Shown here piece after piece: positions 22,261 to 53,337 of a DNA stretch of 62,830 bases. Source of the stretch: an uncultured Phaeodactylibacter sp. (GTDB lineage Bacteria > Bacteroidota > Bacteroidia > Chitinophagales > Saprospiraceae); NCBI GenBank assembly GCA_964488965.1, contig CAZAXA010000001.1:1-62830 (forward strand). The letters are read 5' to 3'. The notes below the pieces were generated by a model, which saw only the letters and a list, made by a program, of their open reading frames with translations, had not been told where the DNA came from and searched no databases. Made by a program: the position numbers and the translations under genes. Position 1 is the stretch's first letter. Each line of letters starts with the position of its first letter.

Positions 22261-24351
22261 TTATTTCACCTCAAAGATTTCATCGGCCAGGCCGGTGTTG
22301 ACCTTCACCGATTCCACCTTCAGGGTGATGGGGAACGGCGCCATGCCGGCAGATTTTAGCTCATGGGCAATACGGATGCCCTCAACCTCCCGGTAGTCGC
22401 CATACTCGTTGGACACTGTCATGGCGCCCTGCGGGCCTTCCTGAGTGGATATGGCCTTCACCTTCAGGCCGGTCTGCACATCGTAATACTCCGTAGATTT
22501 TTCGCCGGAAGGTTCGGTAACCAGTATGCGGTATGCTTTTTTACCGTCCAGTTGCTCGATGCCGTCGAGCGCCAGCTCATAGCCCTTATCCTTGTATTTT
22601 CTTTCCCTGAACAGCTCGGCATCCCTCCTCATGCTTTCGGCATCTTCGCCTTCCAGCTTCTGCTCCTGGCCCATAGCGGCGGCCATTCCCTTTTTGCCGT
22701 CGAAACGGGTTTCATTGACAAGCATGCCATTCATCTCCACCTTCATCAGCATCTTTGCCGGCGCCTTGCGCTGCATGGTCATCTGCATGGCCATACCCTG
22801 CACGGAAGTACTCATAGTAAGGGTCAGGTCTTTCACCGTCTCCAGTTTTTCCCTGCCGCCGATGGCAGCCAGGTAGTTCTCTACCACATCCAGGGCCGTG
22901 AGCCCCTCGGGCAGGGCATCTTCCTCTGCAGCTATCGGGTTGCCGGAGGCATCGAAGAAGCGCAGCTCGCCGTTGCCGGCAAAGCTGCCCAGCTTGTCCG
23001 CCACTTCCGCCTTGTTGCCCACCACTACGATGTAGGCCTGTTCAGGCAGGATGTATTTCCCGGCCACTTCCTGCAGGCGCCCGGCAGAAACGGCGCTCAC
23101 ATTTTTGAGGTAATTGGCGTAATAATCCCTGGGCAGCTTGTAACGGGCCGTATTCAATGCCAGGCGGGCCACCGTCTCCGGCTGCTCCATACCCCGGGCG
23201 AAGCTGCCGGTGATGTAGTTTTTGACGCCCTGCAGTTCTTCCTCCGGCGCCCGTTCGTCCCGTATGCGGTTCATCTCATAAAGGAACTCGACGAGGGCGC
23301 TGTCGGTCACCGCATTGCGCACGCTGCCGCCGGCGGAGAAATAACCGACATACTTGTCCGGGGAAAGGGTGGAGTTCACACCGTAGGAATAACCTTTATC
23401 TTCCCGGATGTTGAGGTTCAGGCGGCTGCTGAGGCCGCCGCTGCCCAGCAAGGTGTTCAATACATTGGCGGCGATAGCATCCTCGGAACCGGGCTTGAGG
23501 TTCACCGGGTAGGTGATATCTATGACGGATTGAACCGCTCCGGGTTTATCCACGAAGGCCACCACCGGAGCTTCCGGCGCTTCGGGGCGTTCGTAAAACT
23601 CACTGGCGACCGTTCCCTTCTCCCAGGTGCTGAAGTACTTTTCGGCGATCTTTTTCGCCTCCGCTACTTTGATGTCCCCAATGATGGCCAGATAAGAAAT
23701 ATTGGGCTTGAAGTAATTTTCATAGAAGGCTTTGCACCCTTCTACGGTAACCGACTCAATGCTTTTCTCAGTCACCACTTCGCCATAGGGGTGCGCCCCG
23801 TAACGCAGCATCTGGGCGACATTGTCCGCAACGACGTCGGGGTCGTCTTTCTGGGAAGAGAGTTCGGACAGTTTTTGTCTTTTCAGCTTCTCAAATTCTT
23901 CCTCTGGAAAAGTGGGGTGCAGCAAAACATCGACCATCACTTCCAGAAGCTTGTCCTTGTGTTTCACCAGGCAGGCGCCATAGAGGCCTTCCTCACTGCT
24001 GCGCAGGCTGGCGCCGATAAAGTCTACCGCCGCGTCGATATCCGCTTTGGAACGGGTTTTGGTACCCCGCGCCAGCAGTGTGCCCGCCATCTCCGCCGTC
24101 CCGGCATGCGCTCCCTCTTTTACAGGCGGCACGTCGACCAGCAGGTTGAAAGCAATGCGCGGCAGTTTGTGATTTTCCACCACGATCACCTGAAGGCCGT
24201 TCTCCAGGCTGAACTCCTCATACGCCCCGAAGCGGATTTCCGGGGCAGGGCCCGGCGCCGGCGGCGCTTTGCGAAAATCATCATTCTGAGCAAAAAGCCC
24301 CTGAAAACCGGCAAGGGCGAAAAACAGGATCAATATTTTTATATTTCTCAT
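22261..24351 (-). CDS. M16-family peptidase, non-catalytic subunit type, with an extra C-terminal ~230-aa domain
   Basis: 696 aa with a signal peptide. The M16 fold has no His-x-x-Glu-His motif (GTAEMAGTLL sits at the equivalent position). A C-terminal extension begins about LTALDVVENYLAAIGGREKLE. Confidence 0.8.
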   Translation of the reverse strand: MRNIKILILFFALAGFQGLFAQNDDFRKAPPAPGPAPEIRFGAYEEFSLENGLQVIVVENHKLPRIAFNLLVDVPPVKEGAHAGTAEMAGTLLARGTKTRSKADIDAAVDFIGASLRSSEEGLYGACLVKHKDKLLEVMVDVLLHPTFPEEEFEKLKRQKLSELSSQKDDPDVVADNVAQMLRYGAHPYGEVVTEKSIESVTVEGCKAFYENYFKPNISYLAIIGDIKVAEAKKIAEKYFSTWEKGTVASEFYERPEAPEAPVVAFVDKPGAVQSVIDITYPVNLKPGSEDAIAANVLNTLLGSGGLSSRLNLNIREDKGYSYGVNSTLSPDKYVGYFSAGGSVRNAVTDSALVEFLYEMNRIRDERAPEEELQGVKNYITGSFARGMEQPETVARLALNTARYKLPRDYYANYLKNVSAVSAGRLQEVAGKYILPEQAYIVVVGNKAEVADKLGSFAGNGELRFFDASGNPIAAEEDALPEGLTALDVVENYLAAIGGREKLETVKDLTLTMSTSVQGMAMQMTMQRKAPAKMLMKVEMNGMLVNETRFDGKKGMAAAMGQEQKLEGEDAESMRRDAELFRERKYKDKGYELALDGIEQLDGKKAYRILVTEPSGEKSTEYYDVQTGLKVKAISTQEGPQGAMTVSNEYGDYREVEGIRIAHELKSAGMAPFPITLKVESVKVNTGLADEIFEVK

Positions 24352-24431
24352 CTCGATTTTTATCTACATCATTAACAAATACAAGCCCGCCCTCCTACCT
24401 GGGCCGGGTAAAATGCACGAATACCCCTCCC

Positions 24432-25763
24432 CTATGGCTGATTTGGCCTAGGCAAATAGTGCAACACCACGCTGTTCTCCTCCACCAGGTATTTTTTTGC
24501 AGCATTCTGAATATCCTCGCGGGTGACGGCCAGGTAGCGGTTGATCTCTTCGTTGACAAGCCTGGCGTCGCCGTATAGCACCTCATAGGTGGCCAGGGTA
24601 TTGGCGATGCCGAAGACTGTGGCGTTGCGGCTGACGAGTTCGCTCTCCACCTGATTGCGCAGCTTCTGGAACTCCTCTTCCGTGACGCCCTCCTTCTGCA
24701 CTTTTTCGACCTCCTGGTTGATGGCCTCTTCCACAGCTTTGGCGTCCACGCCGGCATTACATATGGCATAAGACAGCGCCAGGCTGGGGCCTTCCCTGTC
24801 GTCCACGAAGTTGCCGGTCTGAATGGCCAGTTGCTTTTCATCCACCAGGGCTTTCTTCAGGCGGGAGCTTTCCCCTTCCGACAGCAGGCGGGCCAGCATG
24901 TTGACGGCATAAAAGTCCTCCTCGCCGATAGCAGGCGTACGGTAGGCGATAAACACCCCCGGCAGTTGTATGGCGTCGAAGACGGTATCCCGAACCTGCT
25001 TGCCGAGCGGCGGCTCCTGCACTTTCGGCCGGTAGATGGGCTCCGTGCGCCCGGGAATATCCTTGAAATACTTTTCCACCCACTTCTTCGCCTGGCCGGG
25101 TTCGAGGTCCCCGGCAATGACGAGTACGGCATTATTGGGCACGTAGAACTGCCGGTAGAATTTGACGTAATCCTCCTCTGAAGCAGCGTTCAGATGATCC
25201 ATAGAGCCGATGGGCGTCCACTGATAGGGGTATTTCTGGTAGAGCCTTTTTGAAATCTCCTTCTGGAAGGAGCCATAGGGGCGGTTGTCATAACGCATGC
25301 GCATCTCCTCCTTGACCACTTCGCGCTGGGTTTCCACCCCCTTCTGGTCTACTTTGGCGTGCAACATGCGTTCCGACTCCAGCCACAGGCCCAGCTCCAG
25401 CTGGTTGGAAGGCAACACCTCGAAGTAGCAGGTATTGTCGGAAGTGGTGTAGGCATTAAGGGTGCCGCCCGCATCCTGGACGTACTGGAAAAACTCGCCC
25501 CTGCCGATGTTCTCAGAGCCCTCAAACAGCAAGTGCTCAAAGAAATGGGCAAAACCGGTGCGGCTGGGGTCTTCGTTCTTGGAACCCACGTGGTACATCA
25601 CCGCAATGGCCACGATGGGCGTGCTCTGGTCCTGATGGAGAATGACCGTAAGGCCGTTGTCCAGCGTGTACTTCTCAAAATTGATTTTGTTTTCCTGGGC
25701 TCCGGCCCCACTACCGCTCAGCAACGCTATAGCGCTAAGGAAAAAGGTCAAAAAATTCTTCAT
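24432..25763 (-). CDS. M16-family zinc peptidase (pitrilysin/insulinase type), catalytic subunit
   Basis: 443 aa with a signal peptide. Inverted zinc motif HFFEHLLFEGS with a downstream Glu (EVVKEEM). Confidence 0.9.
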   Translation of the reverse strand: MKNFLTFFLSAIALLSGSGAGAQENKINFEKYTLDNGLTVILHQDQSTPIVAIAVMYHVGSKNEDPSRTGFAHFFEHLLFEGSENIGRGEFFQYVQDAGGTLNAYTTSDNTCYFEVLPSNQLELGLWLESERMLHAKVDQKGVETQREVVKEEMRMRYDNRPYGSFQKEISKRLYQKYPYQWTPIGSMDHLNAASEEDYVKFYRQFYVPNNAVLVIAGDLEPGQAKKWVEKYFKDIPGRTEPIYRPKVQEPPLGKQVRDTVFDAIQLPGVFIAYRTPAIGEEDFYAVNMLARLLSEGESSRLKKALVDEKQLAIQTGNFVDDREGPSLALSYAICNAGVDAKAVEEAINQEVEKVQKEGVTEEEFQKLRNQVESELVSRNATVFGIANTLATYEVLYGDARLVNEEINRYLAVTREDIQNAAKKYLVEENSVVLHYLPRPNQP

Positions 25764-25915
25764 TGGTAATTATTTTGGTACAGGATAGATCTTTCGCGCT
25801 GCGAAAATGAAAAAATATTTCCCGATATAAAACCGGAATATACGGAAATGTACAAATTGCCAGACAAAATAAGGCAGGAAAGGGAAGTATGGGGGCGCCA
25901 GGATTGATAAGTTCA

Positions 25916-26110
25916 GACAGGATTGACAGGTTTTGGCCTGGCAATACTTTGTTCCTTTAACAGGAGCGCGGCCTCCAGGCCCGCGAATTAGATAAAAAAT
26001 CTATTTTGGAACGGAATATAACCTTAAAAAAGGGGGGCGGCTTAACTATAAAAACCCGGTTTAAGAGAACCCGGAAACACTACTCCCCGCAGCCTCCTGT
26101 CAATCCTGTC
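25916..26110. repeat. MITE/REP-like element bounded by a perfect 15-bp inverted repeat
   Basis: GACAGGATTGACAGG (25916..25930) and its exact reverse complement CCTGTCAATCCTGTC (26096..26110). The same terminal motif recurs at 41397..41472. Confidence 0.5.
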
Positions 26111-26150
26111 CAAACATGAAAGCCAGGCCCCGAGCCACGAATCCCGCCCC

Positions 26151-26627
26151 CTACACCACCTTATCCGCACAGGAGGAACTGGCAAAAGCATCGGGCTTGG
26201 CCTTAAAGACGAAGCCCATGCCCAGGATGTAGCCCATAGCTTCCTTGAGCGCGGTATTGGACTGGAAGTGCGGGTCCGTATTGATATCTGCGTGGACTTC
26301 CAGGGCCACGTCGTGCCGGTCGAGCAGGTCGCAGAGAGCATAGGCCACCTCTACAGATTTGGCCACTTCGGTGATCATGCGTTCGCGCAGCCCCAGCTTG
26401 CCCGGTTCTCTGGAGTTTGCAATAAACATGAAGCCGCCTTTTTTCTCCCTCAGGAAAACGATCACGGTAGCAAATTCGATGATGCCGTTACGCACCTGGG
26501 AGTCGGAACCGATACAGACTTTAAGGCGGTGGCCGTTGTTCTTCTCCCTGAGAATAGCCTCCTCCACAGCGTCTTTGATCGGAAGTTCAATTCTTTGGCC
26601 GTTGAGCCTTCGCCAATTCATCGCCAT
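26151..26627 (-). CDS. YkuK/DUF458-like protein (RNase H-like fold family)
   Basis: 158 aa. The pattern KVCIGSDSQ...FATVIVFLREKKGGFMF...EVHADIN is as I recall for the DUF458 family. The assignment is from memory only. Confidence 0.55.
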   Translation of the reverse strand: MAMNWRRLNGQRIELPIKDAVEEAILREKNNGHRLKVCIGSDSQVRNGIIEFATVIVFLREKKGGFMFIANSREPGKLGLRERMITEVAKSVEVAYALCDLLDRHDVALEVHADINTDPHFQSNTALKEAMGYILGMGFVFKAKPDAFASSSCADKVV

Positions 26628-26801
26628 CGTAGTTTTTGCTAAAACTAAAAAAAACTCAACCCGATTTTTTAACGGATTGATAAATTTAACTCAAAATTTA
26701 ATTTCAATTAATATTTTGCTAAACACCCATACTATGGCGGAAGGTTCCCCCGGCGGGATTTTTTTGCTCCCGCTTTACTTTGCTTACTTTTGCTTCAAAA
26801 A

Positions 26802-27626
26802 ATGCCCTCCTTTGCCGACAAATTACAGGAACTCCGCCCCGGGCAGGCCGCTGTGGCCGCCGTGCCCTTCGATGCCTATTCCTCCTTTATGCTGGGAACC
26901 GCCAAGGCGCCGCGGAAAATCTGGGAGGCCTTTCATTCCGATTCCGCCAATACCTTTACTGAAGGAGGAACGGACATTAAGGGCCATCCCCTCGTAGTGG
27001 ATGTGGGGCCCCTGCCCTTTAAATACTACCTGGACATCACGGCGGGCATCGCGCAACTGCTGGACAAAGAAGCGCGGGTGCTCAGCCTGGGCGGCGACCA
27101 TTCCATCACCTACCCCATCATGAAGGCTTTCGCCCAAAAGCATGGCCCGCCCGCCATCCTGCAATTCGACGCCCACAGCGACCTCTACGATTCCTTCGGG
27201 GGCAACCGTTATTCTCACGCCTGCCCCTTCGCCCGCATCATGGAGGAAGGGCTGGCCTGCCGCCTCGTGCAGGTGGGCGTCCGCACCCTGACCACCCATC
27301 AGCGGGAGCAGGCGCAGCGCTTCGGCGTGGAGGTCCACGAAATGAAGGGCGGTATTCCGGAAAAACTTCAACTGGAAGGGCCCCTCTACCTCAGCCTCGA
27401 CATGGATGTGCTGGACCCGGCCTTCGCCCCCGGCATTTCCCATTATGAGCCCGGAGGAATGTCCGTCCGTGAGGTGCTCCGCCTCATCCACGCCATCGAC
27501 GCCCCCATCATCGGGGCGGACATCGTGGAGTTCAACCCCCGCCGCGACCTCAACGGCATGACCGCTATGGTGGCCGCCAAGTTCTTCCGGGAGATTCTGG
27601 GGAAGATGGTTGATTGGGTTGATTAA
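26802..27626 (+). CDS. Arginase-family ureohydrolase (agmatinase-like)
   Basis: The listed start 26790 is TTG, so I used ATG 26802. Manganese-ligand motifs are present: LGGDHSITYP, QFDAHSDLYD, LSLDMDVLDPAFAPG. Confidence 0.85.
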   Translation: MPSFADKLQELRPGQAAVAAVPFDAYSSFMLGTAKAPRKIWEAFHSDSANTFTEGGTDIKGHPLVVDVGPLPFKYYLDITAGIAQLLDKEARVLSLGGDHSITYPIMKAFAQKHGPPAILQFDAHSDLYDSFGGNRYSHACPFARIMEEGLACRLVQVGVRTLTTHQREQAQRFGVEVHEMKGGIPEKLQLEGPLYLSLDMDVLDPAFAPGISHYEPGGMSVREVLRLIHAIDAPIIGADIVEFNPRRDLNGMTAMVAAKFFREILGKMVDWVD

Positions 27627-27653: not shown

Positions 27654-30600
27654 ATGGCCACTGTAAAGCTCAATATTCCCACCCTGATAACGGACGCCAG
27701 GATAGAGGACAAGGTTCATTACCATCTGCGGCCCTTATTTACCGGCTTTCCGGTAGCCAGGCACCGCCGTTTTGACAATGCGGTAGCTTTATTTCAGAAA
27801 GAGGTCCGGCACACTTTCCGTTCTTACCGCCTGGACCGCCAGGGCGCCGGCCACCTGCTGTGGTTTATGTTCAGGCCGGAAGTGCATTATCAGCAGTACC
27901 ATTTCGAGTTCGACCTCGGCAGGCAGTTCGTCAGCGGGCCTTTCGGGGTAGTCCATTTCAGGCTGGAAGGCAAGGTTTTTGTCCTGTTGCCTGCCATCCG
28001 CAATTTCATGTTCATGCTTCCTGCCGAAAAAGGGGACAAAACCGACGTGGAAGGGGCGTCGAAGGAGGCCATACAGGCCATGCTGCGCAACATCAAAAAA
28101 GAAGACGAGAGCGAGTTCAGGCCGGAGGTTTTTTTTGCCGGCCGGCGGGAATTCATCACCACCATAGAGGTAACGGTAAATATCGGGCAGGGTAGCTTCA
28201 GTTTCGAGGCTCCTTCCGCTCACTGGTTTTTTGCCAGCCTTATGGACGATACCAATTTTGACGGAGCTGTAGAGATCGAACGCGTCGGCCAGAACCTGAA
28301 CAGCCTCTACCCTTCCGAACTACGGCGCGCCTACTACCAGGAGGAACTCGTGGGACAGTTGTACAAGGCCATTTTCCAGGGAGGCAATACGCCCCTGGCC
28401 ATTGTCGGGCCGGAGGGCGTCGGCAAGCACACTATCATCCATGAGGTATTGTGGAGGTATGAAAGCGGATTTTACGAAACCCGCAAAGGGCGCGCCCAGC
28501 GCATCTGGCTGATCGACCCCAACCGGATCATCTCCGGGATGAGCATTGTCGGCATGTGGCAGAAGCGCTTCGAAGCTATCCTCTCCTATGTGATAAAGCC
28601 GGGAGAAGCCGCCAAAACCAGCGACAAAATCCTGATAGACAAACCCGTAGCCTTGCTTCGCATCGGAAAATCGGCTCAGAGCACCATGGCCCTCAGCGAT
28701 GTGCTGCGCCCCTACCTGGAGAAACGGCAATTGCAGGCCACCTTGCTGGCCAGCCCGGAAGAATGGAAAGTGATCCAGGAAAGAGGGCGGCGTTTTGCCG
28801 CCCTCTTCCAGGTAGTACGGCTCAGCGAGCCCGGGCAGGCGGAAGCCATCCGGATCATCCTGAAAAACCGGCGCGCCCTGGAACGGGAGAACGATTGCTC
28901 GATAACCATACAGGCGGTTCAGCAACTGCTGGCCATACAGCGCAACTACCTGAAGAACAAACCCCTGCCTGGAAGCGTAATGAAGCTGATGCAGCAACTG
29001 GCCGTCAAGCACCGCTACCGCTCAGTCAATGCTCCGGAAGTCCGCGAAGAATTTAAGGCCTTCAGCGGCCTGGAGGAGCGGATTTTTGATTCTGCGCGGC
29101 AGTTCCAGGAGGAAGAAGTGCACCGGCATATATCCCAGGAACTGGTCGGCCAGCCCCGGGCGGTAGAGGCGCTGGCCAATATCGTGCACATCATCAAGGC
29201 CAAACTGGCGGACAAAGGCCGGCCGCTGGGCTCCTTCCTGTTCATCGGCCCGACAGGGGTCGGCAAAACGCAGGCGGCCAAGGTGCTGTGCAAATACCTG
29301 ATGGGCGACGAGAAGTACCTGATGCGCTTCGACATGAACGAGTACATAGACCAGGGGGCCGTTCACCGCCTCATCGGGGACGACTTCAACCCGGAAGGGC
29401 AGCTCACCGGCGCCGTTCGCTACCGCCCCTTTGGCATCGTGTTGCTGGATGAGATCGAAAAGGCCCACCCCCGTATTCACGACCTGTTGCTGCAACTTCT
29501 GGATGACGGCCGGCTCACCGACAGCATGGGGAGGGCGGTTGATTTCACCAACACGGTCATCATCATGACCTCCAATGTGGGGTCGCAGCAGGTGAATACC
29601 CGCCTGGGGTATCAAGCCGGCCCTGAAGATGATGCCGCCGTCTACCGCCGAGCCGTCGAGCAGGAGTTTCGGCCCGAGTTCATCAACAGGATCGGGCAGA
29701 TCGTCATCTTCAACGCTCTGGAGCTCGGCCACATTCTTGGCATCGCCCGCCTTCAAATCCGGGAACTGTTGCAGCGTGACGGCTTTGTGCGGCGGACTAC
29801 TATTCTCAATATTTCCAAAGAAGCGCTGGAATGGGTGGCCCGGCGGGGCTTTGACGCCCGCATGGGAGGGCGGGCCCTGAAGCGGCAGATAGAACGGGAC
29901 CTCACCTCCCTGTCAGCCAAACAACTGATCTCCACGCAGGCTGAAACACCCATTCTCTTCGACGTCCTCCTGGAAGAAGGCCGCCTCATACCGGTGATCC
30001 GGCCCCTGCAGTTCGTCCAGCCGATCGAGGACGACTGGCTGCCAGAACTTCCCGATGAAACCCGGGGCAAGCCCTTTTATAACCAGTTGCTCCGCAAACT
30101 GGAACACATCCGCAGCCAGCTGCTTGATTTTGAGGAAAAGAGGGAAGCCCACACCGAACCTTTGGTGTATGCCGAGGGGCGCGCCTCCAGCGGCCTGGGC
30201 TGGGAATACTACCACTTCAAAGACAGGGTAGAAGAAACCCGTGAAAACATCAATAATATCAGCCTGGGATTCAGGGACAGGAACTACAAATACGGGCCGG
30301 CCATTCCCCTGCGCCTCAAGCCGGTCAGCCTGGTTCCTAAAAAGGATTGGTCTGCCAAGGGCATAAGAGAAAACATCAAGGACCGTTTATTCCAGCAGGA
30401 AGGTATCCGGGAGATAAGCGAGGCTTATCATTTCGGGATGGCGCCCTTTGACAGCATCAAGACGGAATTTATCGGCAACTACCTGGATGTGGCCTTGCTG
30501 CAGATGCAGCTCAGGGGCGTACTCAGGGGGCGGCCGGAGAAGAGAAACCTGAAAATAAAATCTTACCTCACAGGAATGGGGGAATGGGAAACCGCCTTTT

Positions 30601-30965
30601 TGCTCGATAAGTACTCCGAACTGTTCCAGTTGCTGGATATTCCCCACAAAGTACACAAGAACCGCGGCCTGATCGATATTGAAGCTTTTTCCCTCTACGA
30701 ACTCCTGCAGGGTGAGGAAGGCATTCACCTTTTCTATCCGGGGCAGCGCAACCCCATTCCCGTCCACGTCTCACTGGGGGTAAAAGGCAGGGAGGAAAAT
30801 GCCTACCGGGTAGTGCGCATTTACGACGGGGCCGATACGCTGACAGACCTGCGCACAGGCTTTTCCAATGCCGTCAATATTACGGCCAGTGAATTCAAGC
30901 TGTTGCTTTATGCCGGCATCGGCAAAGGGCTGCGCGGCCTGCTCAACCCGTTCCGAAATAAATGA
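27654..30965 (+). CDS. Atypical Clp/Hsp100-like double AAA+ protein (degenerate D1, intact D2) with unassigned N-terminal (~235 aa) and C-terminal (~320 aa) domains
   Basis: 1103 aa. The D1 Walker A is GPEGVGKH and the Walker B position is ILIDK. The D1 small domain is Clp-like (VVRLSEPGQAEAIRIIL...LPGSVMKLMQQLA). D2 is canonical: FLFIGPTGVGKTQ, IVLLDEIEKAHPRIHDLLLQLLDDGRLTD, VIIMTSN, GGRALKR. Confidence 0.85.
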   Translation: MATVKLNIPTLITDARIEDKVHYHLRPLFTGFPVARHRRFDNAVALFQKEVRHTFRSYRLDRQGAGHLLWFMFRPEVHYQQYHFEFDLGRQFVSGPFGVVHFRLEGKVFVLLPAIRNFMFMLPAEKGDKTDVEGASKEAIQAMLRNIKKEDESEFRPEVFFAGRREFITTIEVTVNIGQGSFSFEAPSAHWFFASLMDDTNFDGAVEIERVGQNLNSLYPSELRRAYYQEELVGQLYKAIFQGGNTPLAIVGPEGVGKHTIIHEVLWRYESGFYETRKGRAQRIWLIDPNRIISGMSIVGMWQKRFEAILSYVIKPGEAAKTSDKILIDKPVALLRIGKSAQSTMALSDVLRPYLEKRQLQATLLASPEEWKVIQERGRRFAALFQVVRLSEPGQAEAIRIILKNRRALERENDCSITIQAVQQLLAIQRNYLKNKPLPGSVMKLMQQLAVKHRYRSVNAPEVREEFKAFSGLEERIFDSARQFQEEEVHRHISQELVGQPRAVEALANIVHIIKAKLADKGRPLGSFLFIGPTGVGKTQAAKVLCKYLMGDEKYLMRFDMNEYIDQGAVHRLIGDDFNPEGQLTGAVRYRPFGIVLLDEIEKAHPRIHDLLLQLLDDGRLTDSMGRAVDFTNTVIIMTSNVGSQQVNTRLGYQAGPEDDAAVYRRAVEQEFRPEFINRIGQIVIFNALELGHILGIARLQIRELLQRDGFVRRTTILNISKEALEWVARRGFDARMGGRALKRQIERDLTSLSAKQLISTQAETPILFDVLLEEGRLIPVIRPLQFVQPIEDDWLPELPDETRGKPFYNQLLRKLEHIRSQLLDFEEKREAHTEPLVYAEGRASSGLGWEYYHFKDRVEETRENINNISLGFRDRNYKYGPAIPLRLKPVSLVPKKDWSAKGIRENIKDRLFQQEGIREISEAYHFGMAPFDSIKTEFIGNYLDVALLQMQLRGVLRGRPEKRNLKIKSYLTGMGEWETAFLLDKYSELFQLLDIPHKVHKNRGLIDIEAFSLYELLQGEEGIHLFYPGQRNPIPVHVSLGVKGREENAYRVVRIYDGADTLTDLRTGFSNAVNITASEFKLLLYAGIGKGLRGLLNPFRNK

Positions 30966-30974
30966 ACCCGGTGA

Positions 30975-31544
30975 TCATTGTTCCCGGCGCTGTATTTCAT
31001 CTCTTATCTTTGCCGCCTGTTCATAATCCTCATTCGACAGGGCCTCTTCCAGCAGGGTTGCCAGTTCCTGGTCAGAAACGCTGCTCAGGTTCTTCCTGGT
31101 AGCGGGAGGCGTAGGGTGGGCGGCAGCCGGGCGGTCGACAATGACCCCGGCCTCATCCATGATGAAATCGTAGGCATAAATGGGGCATTCAAAACGTACC
31201 GCCAGGGCTATGGCGTCGGAAGTCCGGGAATCCAGTTCAAAAGTAGCTCCATCGATCCTCCGGCAAACCATCGTGGCATGGAAAACGCCAAAGCGGAGAT
31301 TGGAGATGATGACCTCTGCCAGCTTAATTCCCAGAGCGGAAAGCGTATTTTTAAAAAGGTCGTGGGTCATAGGACGGTTGACGGGCACCCTTTCCAGGGC
31401 CAGGGCGATGGCCTGCGCTTCGAAAGCACCAATAACGACGGGGAGACGGCGGTTGCCCGCGTCCTCCTTCAACACTACTATAAAACTGTTCGGTTGAGAC
31501 TCACTGTTGGCCAGCGCTACTATTTTCAACTCCAGTTTTCTCAT
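30975..31544 (-). CDS. Bifunctional nuclease family protein (DUF151/BFN) with a C-terminal UVR motif
   Basis: 189 aa. BFN pattern: FIVVLKEDAGNRRLPVVIGAFEAQAIALALE...RPMTHDL...DSRTSDAIALAVRFECPIY. The C-terminal UVR-like helix is LEEALSNEDYEQAAKIRDEI. Confidence 0.85.
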   Translation of the reverse strand: MRKLELKIVALANSESQPNSFIVVLKEDAGNRRLPVVIGAFEAQAIALALERVPVNRPMTHDLFKNTLSALGIKLAEVIISNLRFGVFHATMVCRRIDGATFELDSRTSDAIALAVRFECPIYAYDFIMDEAGVIVDRPAAAHPTPPATRKNLSSVSDQELATLLEEALSNEDYEQAAKIRDEIQRREQ

Positions 31545-33140: not shown

Positions 33141-33674
33141 CTAAAGTACTATGGCCGCCTCTTTTTTAATGGCCAGCAGCGCCTTTTCCACCGCCGTGAT
33201 CTCGCGCTGGTTGACCATGTTGAACAATGCCTGGGCCAGTTCTTTCCCGTCGGCCCGGGGGCCGGCCTTTTCGGCCACCAGGGATACCATGTTCACCGCT
33301 TCATCCCTGGCCATCTTAATGATCTCCCACAATTGTTCGGAGACATAGACCTGCTGGGTGATATTGTGTTCGTATTCCTGCTGGATGGCCAGCAGCAGGG
33401 CCACGCGCAGTTCTCCCGCCGTCATCCCCTCTTTTCTGATGCGCAGCAGCAGGTTGGGAATAGAGATGCGTTCGCACAGCATGGAAAGGCGTTCATAGGC
33501 CTGCAACTTCAGAGGCAGGGTCATTTCGAGCTGGCCCTTGCGCAGTTCAGCCGCCTGCAGGCGGTACTGGTTCTCGAGGTAAGTTTTTAAAATGTAATAG
33601 GCCGTCAGAAAGACGATCAACGCCGGTACTGTCAGCTTCACCAATTCCAGGATAAAAGATAACCAAGTTGGCAT
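33141..33674 (-). CDS. Hypothetical membrane-anchored protein
   Basis: 177 aa with an ATG start. It has an N-terminal TM helix (LSFILELVKLTVPALIVFLTAYYIL). No catalytic motif recognised. Confidence 0.55.
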   Translation of the reverse strand: MPTWLSFILELVKLTVPALIVFLTAYYILKTYLENQYRLQAAELRKGQLEMTLPLKLQAYERLSMLCERISIPNLLLRIRKEGMTAGELRVALLLAIQQEYEHNITQQVYVSEQLWEIIKMARDEAVNMVSLVAEKAGPRADGKELAQALFNMVNQREITAVEKALLAIKKEAAIVL

Positions 33675-50691: not shown

Positions 50692-53337
50692 CTATTCACC
50701 GAACAACAGCAGCCCGCTCCATATTGCCGGCGCTGCCGTTGCCTTAGCCCGGATCATTCCGAGCTTGGCCTGCCGAAGCGCCGCCGCGGGGCTTTGGCCA
50801 CCAAGCAATTCCTTATAAAGGGGCGCCATCATTTCCACAGCATAGATACTGGCAGGCTTCCAGAGGGATATTATTACATTGGAGGCGCCGGCATCCAGAA
50901 AAGAACGGCTCAGGGAGAGGGCGCCTTCACCTTCCGCCAACTGCCCCATGCCGCTATCACAGTTGCTGACCACCACCAGTTCGGCCTGAAGCGTCAGGGT
51001 GGCGGCCTCCGGACAGAAGAGGATACCGTCTTCGGCGCTGCCGCCTTCCTTTTGGGCGAAGGCGATACCGGACAGAGCGGGGGTGGCCTCGTTGATAAAA
51101 CCGTGCGTGGCCAGGTGCAGGTAGCGGCAATGCCCGGCGCGCTCCCGGAAAGCCGGCTCGCTGGCCTCAGCCCGGAGCAGCGCCGCTGCGGTTTGTTTTT
51201 TACCGGAAAACTGTTCCAGGATGCCATTCATCTCTATTTCCGAGAGTGGCAGGGGAAGGAAGCGGCGCCCGTCGGGAGCGGCGGCGAGCAGGCTTCTGCT
51301 CTGCTGGTAAGCAGTGTCGAAGACAAAAGCGTTGCTGCTTCCGATGGCGTTGTCATTTGCCTGTTGGCTGAAAAAGGGGGCCATGCCCAGCAGGCCTTCG
51401 CCGTAGTTGCCGGACGGAGCGCCTGCCCTCGCGAAGAGGCTTGCCGAATGCCGGTACTGAACGGCCACATCTCCGATGAGGTAATCGAGCTTGTGCAGTT
51501 TTACCTTTTCCGGTTTGTCCATCCTGTTGGCGGACAGCGCTTCAAAAGGAATATGGACAAGCTTCCCGTGGGGAAGGATGATGAGTTCTTCTTTCTCATC
51601 GAGCAGTCCCTTTACCGGGAGGATGAGCCGCCTATAGAGGTTGCCGCTGTAAAAAGCGAATTTCTGTTCGTCCCCTTGCCGGATAGCCTTCAGGTAGCCG
51701 TCGATGGCATCGGGCAGGGCGGGCAGTTTCAGTTCCTCGTCCGGCCCGGCGCTGAGTTGCGATACTGTGAAACTGCCGTCGGCCAGGGCAAAGATGAAGT
51801 AATGGCTATTGCCGGTGAAGTAGGCCAACATGGCCTGCTTTTTGCCGAGTTTGCCCTGCAACTGTTGAGGCGTAGCCAGTTCCAGGGCGAAGCGTTGCCG
51901 GTAGTAGGCCGGCGAAGCGCTTTGGAGGCTTTCGGCGAAGGCCCGGTAGGCCTGCCGCCGGCGCTCCAGTTTTTGCTGCAGGCCCGCCTTGTCGGGGTAG
52001 AGGTTGAAGTCCGCCTCTGCCGCTTTCATGGCGTAGCGCAGGCGGGCTTCTTCTTCCCGCAGGTCCGGCGGCAGTTGCGCAAGCCCCTGCCGGTGGATGC
52101 GGTTGAGGCGCAGTGCCAATGCCCGGGCGCGTTCGGAAAGCTCGAAGGCCTTTTCGGCCTGGGCAGGGTTGCCTGTTGCCCGATAAAGCCGGCAGGCTGC
52201 GGTTATGCCCGCCTCGAAGACGGGAATATGTTCTTCCAGGATGGCCAGGCGGTTATTCTCGTCAATAAGCAGGGCCGCTTCCTCTTCCAGCGCTTCGATG
52301 CCGCGCTGGCTGGCAGCCAGGGCCTGCCCGAGGTGTTCCTGCCCGCCTGCTTTAAGCAGCAGGGCCGCTTTTGCCGACAGGGCGCGGGCCAGCAGGAGGC
52401 GGCTGAGGGAAAGCTGTTCCGGGCCGGGATTATCCCCGATGCGGGCGCCGGCAAAGCCCGGGCAGAGCTGGCGGAGCGCTTCCTGCACGGCATAACGGGC
52501 GCCTGCCGTATCTTCTGTGCTGAGCCGGAGTTCCGCCAGAGCGATCAGGCTACGGCCCAGTTCGCGGCGGCTTCCGCCATCAGGGCTTTGAAAAGCCTCT
52601 CTGGCCAGAGCATAGCAGGCCTCGGCTTTCTGGAAGGCCCCTTCCCGGAAGGCCAGTTCTCCCCGGGCGTCATACAGCTGCCCCTTGCGGGCGGCGCCGC
52701 CCGCCAGCCCTTTTTCCACGGCCAGAGCTTTTTCCATCCATTCCCAGGCAGCTTCCGTATTCCCTTCGAGCAGGCAGGTGCGCCCAATGTAGTAATAATT
52801 GATGGCAACGGCCGGCGCCTCTTCCCCTTCTTCGATCAGGAGGATATCCAGCGACTGTTGATAGTACCGGCGGGCCCGTTCGTACTGTTTAAGTTCCGCA
52901 AAGGTATGGCCGAAATGTTCCTTGATACGGGCGGCTGTCTGCGGGGCGTCGATAAGGGGGAATGCCTCGGAGCGGAACAACTGGGCCAGCGCCCGCTCGT
53001 ATTGGCCCTGCCGGAGATAGATGGCGCCGGCGCGCAGGTAGTTTTTTGCAGCATCTTCAGGGATGAACTGCTGCAGCAGTTCCAGGGAGGCGGCGTTGTC
53101 GGCCAGGGCGGCCGCCAGGTTGCCCAGTTGCAGGTAGTTGTAACTCCTCAGGAAGAGGGCCTCTCCCTTATCGTACAAGCGGCCGGGATGGGCATCCATA
53201 AACTCGCCGAGCAGCGCATTAGAGGCCTCGTAGCGGCCGGCAGCGGAAAGGGCTTCGGCCTCCCCGAGCATCTTTTCGGGCTGTGCCTTGGCGGTATGTA
53301 AAAAAGTGAGCAGTACAAAGAGCAGGGGATATTTCAT
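50692..53337 (-). CDS. Secreted TPR-repeat CHAT-domain (caspase-like) protease
   Basis: 881 aa with a signal peptide (MKYPLLFVLLTFLHTAKAQ). About 550 aa of TPR-like repeats are followed by a C-terminal CHAT domain with a His/Cys dyad context (YLHLATHGF ... LVVVSNCDSGMG). Confidence 0.9.
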   Translation of the reverse strand: MKYPLLFVLLTFLHTAKAQPEKMLGEAEALSAAGRYEASNALLGEFMDAHPGRLYDKGEALFLRSYNYLQLGNLAAALADNAASLELLQQFIPEDAAKNYLRAGAIYLRQGQYERALAQLFRSEAFPLIDAPQTAARIKEHFGHTFAELKQYERARRYYQQSLDILLIEEGEEAPAVAINYYYIGRTCLLEGNTEAAWEWMEKALAVEKGLAGGAARKGQLYDARGELAFREGAFQKAEACYALAREAFQSPDGGSRRELGRSLIALAELRLSTEDTAGARYAVQEALRQLCPGFAGARIGDNPGPEQLSLSRLLLARALSAKAALLLKAGGQEHLGQALAASQRGIEALEEEAALLIDENNRLAILEEHIPVFEAGITAACRLYRATGNPAQAEKAFELSERARALALRLNRIHRQGLAQLPPDLREEEARLRYAMKAAEADFNLYPDKAGLQQKLERRRQAYRAFAESLQSASPAYYRQRFALELATPQQLQGKLGKKQAMLAYFTGNSHYFIFALADGSFTVSQLSAGPDEELKLPALPDAIDGYLKAIRQGDEQKFAFYSGNLYRRLILPVKGLLDEKEELIILPHGKLVHIPFEALSANRMDKPEKVKLHKLDYLIGDVAVQYRHSASLFARAGAPSGNYGEGLLGMAPFFSQQANDNAIGSSNAFVFDTAYQQSRSLLAAAPDGRRFLPLPLSEIEMNGILEQFSGKKQTAAALLRAEASEPAFRERAGHCRYLHLATHGFINEATPALSGIAFAQKEGGSAEDGILFCPEAATLTLQAELVVVSNCDSGMGQLAEGEGALSLSRSFLDAGASNVIISLWKPASIYAVEMMAPLYKELLGGQSPAAALRQAKLGMIRAKATAAPAIWSGLLLFGE

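Follow-up and report, generated by a model that had tools for sequence, protein, structure and literature searches.

A putative Clp/Hsp100 class of Saprospiraceae with a conserved, predicted hydrolysis-dead D1 ring and a live D2 ring

Introduction

What can a double-ring Clp protein do if one of its rings appears unable to hydrolyze ATP and the other is devoid of the canonical pore loop? Clp/Hsp100 proteins are textbook models of AAA+ rings that turn ATP hydrolysis into protein unfolding, and the current model of their action relies on aromatic pore-1 loops in the hydrolyzing ring. The question is raised by a gene in a stretch of 62,830 nucleotides (nt) from an uncultured Phaeodactylibacter sp. 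of the Saprospiraceae (Bacteroidota; assembly GCA_964488965.1, contig CAZAXA010000001.1, positions 1 to 62,830), hereafter termed the window. The gene is an intact open reading frame (ORF) on the forward strand (27654-30965) and encodes a product of 1103 amino acids (aa), recognizable from the ORF, its translation and Pfam as a divergent Clp/Hsp100 double-ring AAA+ protein. An earlier note, made from the sequence alone, had drawn attention to it, and the ORF and all motifs quoted there are present at the positions given. The analysis described here indicates that the protein very probably represents a new Clp/Hsp100 class in which a dead D1 is combined with a live D2. A description of this family was not found in the literature, and we know of no characterized Clp member that unites a dead but conserved D1, a live D2 without GYVG and a tripeptide of the ClpP-docking type.

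Results

More than 400 full-length homologues of the Clp-like protein were found. An exhaustive HMMER search yielded more than 150 clusters at the 50%-identity level, with a common architecture of ~1100 aa and identities down to ~33%. Residue counts given for the family refer to 133 full-length representatives, counts for close relatives to 27 full-length Saprospiraceae/Lewinellaceae homologues with 52-79% identity, and motif positions were compared in a MAFFT alignment of the protein with E. coli ClpA and ClpB, taken from NC_000913. The start codon is backed by the N-terminus MAxVKLxIPTLV, which is kept among homologues. Pfam recognizes AAA_2 at aa 523-681 (156.6 bits, cut-off 27), ClpB_D2-small at aa 691-763 (40.5 bits, cut-off 21.9) and, weakly, AAA_lid_9 at aa 396-469 (15 bits). 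Thus, a D1 module is followed by an AAA_2-type D2 with ClpB_D2-small, the arrangement of a Clp/Hsp100 double-ring protein.

Within this superfamily, the protein was placed by its NCBIfam equivalog scores, used instead of a D1/D2 tree with ClpA, ClpB, ClpC, ClpV and ClpK, with E. coli ClpA and ClpB as references. The equivalogs for ClpB, ClpA, ClpK, ClpV and ClpG gave 230-313 bits against cut-offs of 885-1900: the ClpB models scored 312.8 versus 1232.1 (TIGR03346) and 274.7 versus 1417 (NF008118), the ClpA model TIGR02639 scored 294.7 versus 993.15, the ClpV model TIGR03345 232.7 versus 884.95, and the exception-level models of ClpK and ClpG 237 and 230 versus 1900. Because all scores fall far under their cut-offs, the protein is assigned to none of the named classes. 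The domain layout is in line with this placement. Compared to E. coli ClpB there is a gap of ~120 aa where the M-domain would be, the phmmer alignment passes over ClpB residues 411-530, and the linker between D1 and D2 has the length found in ClpA. ClpA aligns continuously over aa 241-759, whereas the ClpB alignment splits around the M-domain. A Clp_N domain was not matched by Pfam anywhere in the 1103 aa. Hence, the earlier description of the protein as lacking both the long middle coiled coil of ClpB and a Clp_N repeat, and as distinct from housekeeping ClpB and ClpA, is well supported.

These data also bear on the idea that the protein recycles contractile sheaths in the manner of ClpV/TssH, acting in a type VI secretion system (T6SS) or a contractile injection system, or else is a diverged housekeeping ClpB or ClpC. 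Membership in the Clp/Hsp100 superfamily would fit, and Aureispira and Saprospira, both Saprospiraceae, have contractile machinery. The low ClpV and ClpB scores contradict it, however, as do the missing M-domain, a feature of ClpV as well as of ClpB, the missing Clp_N and the catalytically dead D1 described below. Genes of a T6SS or an injection system were not seen in the window or in the neighborhoods examined, and the paper on ixotrophy is silent on ClpV. We regard this explanation as scarcely credible.

The D1 module (28251..29063, forward strand, as all features of the gene) comprises a large and a small subdomain and aligns to ClpB D1 and to ClpA. In a sequence search of the PDB, aa 245-463 matched ClpB D1 residues 200-411 with 38.6 bits. 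Its Walker A motif reads GPEGVGKH (28407..28430), with His-259 in the place of Thr or Ser. The pattern GxxGxGK-H is found in 23 of the 27 close relatives; family-wide, the residue after GK is Thr in 92 representatives, His in 25 and Ser in 12, and the Walker A Lys itself is replaced by Arg in 36/133. The Walker B motif reads ILIDK (28629..28643), so that Lys-330 replaces the catalytic Glu. This Glu is lost in 132 of the 133 representatives (Asn 81, Asp 41, Lys 5) and kept in one; among the close homologues the position is occupied by Asn in 25 and by Lys in two, the present protein included. The arginine fingers of D1 are gone as well. Where ClpB has ERRFQ and ClpA has ARRFQ, we find AALFQ, with Ala383-Leu384 at the finger position (28800..28805), and the family form is SDLFQ, with Asp in 115/133 and Leu in 113/133. 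Since the losses of the Walker B Glu and of the arginine fingers recur across the representatives, a hydrolysis-dead D1 is predicted to define the whole family and not just this protein.

Both D1 motifs read as the earlier note had quoted them. Its alternative, that orthologues would have canonical D1 Walker motifs, is not what the family counts give, and the two substitutions turn out to differ in their reach: loss of the Glu is family-wide, whereas the Lys is local (5/133) and the His is limited to a subclade (25/133). Judged from this distribution, His in the place of Thr is a marker of the subclade nearest to the present protein and Lys-330 a local departure from the Asn typical of the family. 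Strain noise or an assembly error as source of His-259 and Lys-330 was considered and excluded: metagenomes of sludge, wastewater and bioreactors from at least eight studies contain the gene in nearly identical form, and 351 nt spanning both codons are identical letter for letter in contigs of four independent studies.

Despite the loss of its catalytic elements, D1 is well conserved. Column identity among Saprospiraceae homologues ranges from 0.62 to 0.82 over D1, and over aa 281-400 it amounts to 0.72-0.82, exceeding that of the N- and C-terminal regions, which argues against a decaying module. Conservation peaks in the channel-facing loops, with the blocks GMSIVGMWQKRFE and ALLRIGKSAQ..LRPYLEKRQLQ. 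The D1 pore-1 loop reads GMSIVG (28536..28553) compared to KYRG in ClpA and ClpB; the position of the pore-loop Tyr is Ile in the present protein, and Tyr (44), Ile (37), Val (31) or Phe (6) in the family. D1 is thus under strong purifying selection, above all in its channel-facing loops; it is without three catalytic elements yet conserved, and a lack of hydrolysis is predicted as a family trait.

The second ring presents the opposite picture with respect to catalysis. D2 (29121..29963; AAA_2 plus ClpB_D2-small) matches ClpB D2 with 231 bits in a sequence search of the PDB (aa 457-783). It carries the Walker A motif GPTGVGKT (29247..29270), the Walker B motif IVLLDE (29436..29453), sensor-1 MTSN, the arginine finger RPEFINR and sensor-2 GGRALKR (29865..29885), and K538, D599, E600, N641, R679 and R740 are invariant in 133/133 representatives. 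By these motifs, D2 is catalytically complete as a conserved trait of the family. The earlier note went further and credited D2 with all canonical Clp motifs. This holds for Walker A and B, the sensors and the arginine finger, but is wrong for D2 as a whole because its pore-1 loop is five residues short and without GYVG: the segment GAPPGYVG(F/Y)xxGG of ClpA and ClpB corresponds to GDDFNPEG (29376..29399), and the deletion takes out PGYVG. The segment comprises 8 residues in 126/133 representatives compared to 13 in ClpA and ClpB, and only 84/133 have any aromatic residue in it. The proposal of a specialized unfoldase with a pseudo-ATPase D1 therefore has to be divided. Its catalytic part, with D1 dead and D2 live, is supported, while unfolding as such is less secure, because the only live ring is without a canonical pore-1 loop. 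The regulatory role that the earlier note gave to D1 would go beyond the purifying selection seen in the data.

A further element of D2 had been overlooked. According to the earlier note, the protein has no obvious ClpP-docking loop of the IGF/IGL type, but the tripeptide LGY (aa 651-653, 29604..29612) sits at the position of IGL in ClpA and of FGE in ClpB. It coincides with the ClpA tripeptide within one alignment column, loop lengths being equal, and lies between the D2 sensor-1 and the arginine finger, the same topology as that of IGF in ClpX. The pattern [LVMI]-G-[FY] occurs in 24 of the 27 close homologues, with LGF, VGF, IGF or MGF as the usual forms among the relatives of the protein. 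Across the 133 representatives the first residue is hydrophobic in 112 and the second is Gly in 120, followed by Phe in 112, Leu in 10 and Tyr in 6. All six distant paralogues that were examined have xGF. An LGF/IGF loop is an accepted sequence marker that divides ClpP partners from ClpB (PMC10149685). Thus, a tripeptide of the ClpP type is present at motif level, and the reading of the protein as a partner of a protease is reopened.

Both ends of the protein lie outside known families: Pfam and NCBIfam cover neither aa 1-235 nor aa 785-1103. The terminal regions therefore do not turn out to be common Clp accessory domains, which would have made this an ordinary ClpB or ClpC. An AlphaFold2 (AF2) model of the N-terminal region, based on an alignment of 23 sequences, has a predicted local distance difference test (pLDDT) score of ~90 for aa 1-180 and low scores for aa 181-240. 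It shows a β-sheet packed with helices. The N-terminal domain, described before as ~235 aa long and without assignable family, is indeed without family, but the separate domain seems to comprise aa 1-~190 only (27654..28223), an α/β fold without known relative; residues ~200-245 form the first helices of D1 and include the conserved block FDGAxEIEKVGxDLNSLYP. Foldseek gave nothing significant for this domain against the PDB (best E-value 0.1, TM-score <=0.25) or against BFVD. Comparison by hhalign with the N-terminal regions of the g1 and g3 paralogues or of the partner protein introduced below reached probabilities of <=0.3%, with templates that were single sequences.

For the ~320-aa C-terminal extension after aa ~785, likewise noted earlier as having no assignable family, the AF2 model of aa 781-1103 has a predicted TM (pTM) score of 0.74 and falls into two parts. 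The first (aa ~785-960, 30006..30533) consists of long helical hairpins, with helices at model residues 22-53, 70-97, 128-146 and 155-178 and mixed pLDDT values of 50-95. The second (aa ~961-1100, 30534..30953) is a compact α/β domain with pLDDT values of ~85-95. It carries a polar patch formed by E1021, G1023, H1025, R1055, Y1057, D1065 and R1067 (30714..30854), each of which is kept in 113-131 of the 133 representatives; the remainder of the extension diverges fast. In the model, these residues take every other position on three neighboring β-strands and hence are predicted to lie on one face of the sheet, a pattern as expected of a binding surface. A protease domain behind D2, in the manner of Lon or FtsH, was also considered and rejected, as the family retains Glu, His, Arg, Tyr, Asp and Arg on a face of the sheet and no catalytic set of Ser, His or Cys.

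Structure comparison of the C-terminal model brought up another candidate. The ten best PDB matches in Foldseek are all RF1, RF2 or mtRF1 (probability 0.72-1.0, E-values 4e-4 to 5e-2), with secondary matches of the α/β domain to ferredoxin-like folds, so that the extension might act as a module of release-factor type by which the ATPase is brought to stalled ribosomes. The TM-scores of these matches are, however, only 0.19-0.33, and homology to release factors was rejected. An hhalign comparison of the family profile with E. coli RF1 gave 0.35%, the Pfam PCRF profile matched one of 19 members only (E = 0.09), an RF-1 signal is absent, and the GGQ motif is missing; its candidate Gln column holds Ile, Thr, Val, Leu or Phe and lies inside a β-strand. 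A profile search of the PDB with the extension found nothing. What is left is a weak resemblance at the level of the predicted fold, and we consider a ribosome-associated factor to be highly improbable.

The distribution of the gene was followed in GTDB species genomes, which were scanned with the D1 alignment; 144 relatives were found and 80 loci kept. Where a family or genus name is given, the GTDB relatives all belong to the Saprospiraceae or Lewinellaceae, including Phaeodactylibacter, Lewinella, Aureispira, Saprospira and Flavilitoribacter; the remaining ones are labeled more broadly, for example as Bacteroidota or Chitinophagales. Relatives also occur in at least one metagenome-assembled genome (MAG) of Gammaproteobacteria.

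In most of these genomes the gene has a characteristic neighbor. The usual partner is a protein of ~880-900 aa with two AAA modules of the CbbX/SpoVK/EccA type, encoded divergently next to the Clp-like gene. The two genes are adjacent in 6/6 loci obtained by exact protein look-up (52-79% identity), and of 64 loci that could be assessed, 46 have the partner upstream and on the other strand. Considering only loci with full flanks, it is present in 28/33, compared to 5-11/33 for any other neighboring gene. Walker A and B are intact in both AAA modules of the partner (GNPGTGKT and VLFIDE, twice). We also observed that its N-terminal region of ~295 aa is without family assignment (loci L001-L007, for example L006:7168-9807 on the reverse strand) and that the partner is more conserved than the Clp-like protein, with 66-100% identity to the L006 copy. 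After the partner, the next most persistent neighbor in close relatives is a DUF7935 gene, which in the window lies two genes downstream (33141-33674, reverse strand) and is retained in 17 of the 80 related loci.

The pairing gives weight to an alternative in which the protein is a stand-alone remodeler that acts independently of ClpP, together with the tandem partner, on one dedicated client or complex, and in which xGF makes an internal or partner contact. The partner belongs to a clade of dedicated single-client chaperones, namely CbbX, SpoVK and EccA (PMC11513918), and its retention in the full-flank loci contrasts with 15-33% for other neighbors. Furthermore, the truncated D2 pore loop speaks against processive threading, and a large C-terminal domain is located at the D2 end. 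On the other hand, xGF is kept equally in distant members and paralogues that have no partner gene at the locus, and therefore is not a partner-specific contact. An adjacent partner is missing in 18 of the 64 assessable loci and in this window, and a divergent pair within one bacterial family could be inherited synteny. We regard this alternative as the main rival explanation, although as less likely than not.

In the window itself the arrangement is different. The Clp-like gene begins 27 nt past a gene of the arginase/agmatinase family and is convergent with a BFN (DUF151)-UVR gene, as described previously. The two convergent stop codons are only 9 nt apart (30965-30975), which leaves no space for separate terminators, and the convergent transcripts therefore probably overlap. 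The ATG of the Clp-like gene is the exact point from which synteny with the closest relatives (L003 and L006) sets in, and the upstream genes for the agmatinase, an RNaseH-like protein and two M16 peptidases (22261-27626) are found in 0/80 related loci, indicating a lineage-specific rearrangement. By this comparison, a rearrangement parted the Clp-like gene from its divergent partner and set it behind the agmatinase gene. An ORF of 881 aa in the window (50692-53337, reverse strand) was considered as the partner and rejected, as it encodes a TPR protein with a CHAT (caspase-like protease) domain, an architecture that is common in conflict or signaling systems. The earlier judgment that operon logic gives no clear hint thus holds true for the window, but not for the relatives, with their divergent partner and, in distant members, operons of three paralogues.

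In 3/5 loci of these distant members (~32-35% identity, a Gammaproteobacteria MAG included), three paralogues stand in tandem, with the orthologue as the second gene (L088:2727-11432, L089:4297-13797 and L095:4618-13563). The encoded proteins have ~1060-1130, ~1085 and ~755 aa, and the gene ends abut or overlap. All three paralogues share a D1 deficient in Walker B (with one exception, FDE), a truncated D2 pore loop and xGF, which suggests that they may form mixed rings. In L095, genes for a MoxR-type AAA_5 protein and a DUF2201 (VWA-like) protein are found directly upstream of the triad. In loci L006 and L007, which come from a Phaeodactylibacter relative with 79% identity, a gene for a TPR protein with an effector-associated EAD11 domain lies directly downstream of the Clp-like gene (L006:13409-15058, L007:6342-7991).

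These multi-ATPase operons and the EAD11-TPR genes could point to an ATPase that serves in anti-phage defense or in conflict. Two entries of this kind are matched in PADLOC and would be its counterparts, namely DolB of Dodola, which is ClpB-like (8e-22), and the candidate PDC-M37B (1e-26). The matches are limited to the generic AAA_2 region of D2 (aa 477-650), though, and DolA or another system partner does not occur in the neighborhood. Rather than being patchy or borne on islands, the gene belongs to the stable core, in single copy, with synteny throughout one entire bacterial family and presence in 144 GTDB species; its phyletic pattern is one of vertical inheritance and its neighbors are housekeeping genes. 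An anti-phage role is thus very unlikely.

The gene is also represented in RNA data. Contigs of wastewater and activated-sludge metatranscriptomes tile it with 0-2 mismatches at a depth of ~3-12, compared to 28-56 for the RNaseH-like gene and 12-19 for the BFN gene on its flanks, and this uneven depth across genes favors RNA over contaminating DNA as their source. The RNaseH-like gene (PF04308; 26151-26627, reverse strand) has the highest contig depth of the region. One contig (27449-27681) bridges the junction between the agmatinase and the Clp-like gene, which suggests read-through from the former into the latter.

Discussion

The family described here has kept the frame of a Clp machine with an unusual combination of features. 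That the protein acts as a D2-driven unfoldase or remodeler is likely. For ClpA it is known that D2 performs 80-90% of the hydrolysis and is the principal unfoldase, with D1 being auxiliary (PMC7568338), and a machine driven by D2 only is therefore feasible. In the working model, the rings would assemble with D2 as the sole motor, and D1 would be a non-hydrolyzing ring that binds nucleotide at most and provides assembly and the substrate channel. With its D2 pore-1 loop truncated, the protein would probably grip the substrate by the conserved D1 loops together with the short D2 remnant, both shifted by a D2-driven motion of the whole protomer. The novel N-terminal domain may select the substrate or an adaptor, and the C-terminal α/β domain, with its Glu/His/Arg/Tyr/Asp/Arg surface, may bind a ligand, a regulator or a client. 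In the simplest reading, [LIVM]-G-[FY] on the underside of D2 would dock onto ClpP, to which the selected clients would be handed over for degradation. Most relatives may in addition work jointly with, or be co-regulated with, the divergently encoded tandem AAA+ protein of the CbbX/SpoVK/EccA type, and distant lineages would probably build mixed rings with two paralogues.

Taken as a whole, a D2-driven Clp machine that delivers clients to ClpP is the best overall explanation that we can offer, although we hold it only tentatively and give it slightly less than an even chance. The same caution applies to its critical step, the coupling to ClpP that the tripeptide suggests, which we consider somewhat more likely to fail than to hold. 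Several observations weigh against it. The corresponding alignment columns hold FGE in E. coli ClpB, and the pairing of a hydrophobic residue with Gly may hence be partly structural; the tripeptide of the present protein also ends in Tyr, where Phe or Leu is canonical. To our knowledge, all characterized ClpP partners (ClpX, ClpA and ClpC) have a GYVG pore-1 loop in the ring proximal to ClpP, while in this family the D2 loop is truncated and 49/133 representatives are without an aromatic residue there. The ~320-aa extension behind the D2 small domain could block the face that docks to ClpP. A clpP gene was not found near the gene, neither in the window nor in any of ~90 loci, and the same is true for clpX; distance from clpP is, however, also usual for clpA and clpC genes. 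Finally, tblastn did not find the tandem AAA+ partner within this window.

A more explicit version of the ClpP model can be formulated, in which the machine is split between its rings: D2, having given up its pore-1 loop, fuels it and the conserved D1 loops, ancestrally S/K-Y-V/L-G, grip the substrate, which a D2-driven shift of entire protomers would pass through D1 to a ClpP docked at loops of the LGF type. The three paralogues of the distant lineages would then make up a mixed ring, and in the Saprospiraceae a single paralogue would act together with the tandem CbbX/EccA-type AAA+ protein. In this full form the proposal is rather improbable.

If the protein does thread its substrates, the family probes the limits of the division of labor between two rings; if it does not, it shows that the Clp scaffold can be put to other uses. 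Independent of this, the family adds two confidently folded domains without structural relatives and brings to light a lasting pairing with a tandem ATPase of the CbbX/SpoVK/EccA type. Its hosts are filamentous bacteria that abound in activated sludge, and the gene is therefore readily found in environmental data; cultured relatives also exist, such as Flavilitoribacter nigricans DSM 23189 and Phaeodactylibacter xiamenensis KD52.

It is worthwhile to compare the family with systems that are already known. A precedent for an additional class is ClpI of Actinomycetota, which was defined bioinformatically and is experimentally uncharacterized (PMC10149685). As with ClpI, the class is set apart by its N-terminal domain, the length of the M-domain and whether or not it has the LGF loop. 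In ClpI the ATPase modules and translocation motifs are intact and the M-domain has the length of that of ClpC, in contrast to the predicted dead D1, the missing M-domain, the truncated D2 pore loop and the long C-terminal extension of the present family.

Closest in layout is ClpA, with which the protein shares the succession of D1 and D2 without M-domain, a linker of equal length, alignment in a single stretch (aa 241-759) and, at the IGL position, a hydrophobic-Gly-hydrophobic tripeptide in a loop of matching geometry. In ClpA, too, D2 is the main motor. An obvious difference is the novel N-terminal domain of ~190 aa in the place of Clp_N, and in addition D1 appears incompetent for hydrolysis, GYVG is deleted from D2 and an extension of ~320 aa follows at the C-terminus. 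ClpB/Hsp104, in turn, gives the best match to D2 (231 bits) and shares its Walker, sensor and arginine-finger motifs as well as the D2-small domain. It differs from the present protein in having an M-domain, and thus the element for coupling to Hsp70, in having Clp_N, and in being without the LGF-type tripeptide. Moreover, ClpB has two hydrolysis-competent rings, whereas D1 of our protein, with GKH, D-K and no arginine fingers, is predicted to be dead.

Outside of this superfamily, type II AAA+ proteins are known in which one of the rings is degenerate, as exemplified by D2 of NSF and D1 of PEX1/PEX6 and p97. The common theme is a ring that hydrolyzes poorly or not at all and is kept for assembly or as a scaffold while the other ring does the work. 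These proteins belong to the classical AAA clade and not to Clp/Hsp100, and the distribution of parts differs as well: in the family described here it is the putatively dead ring that keeps the conserved channel loops, and the live ring that is without a canonical pore loop.

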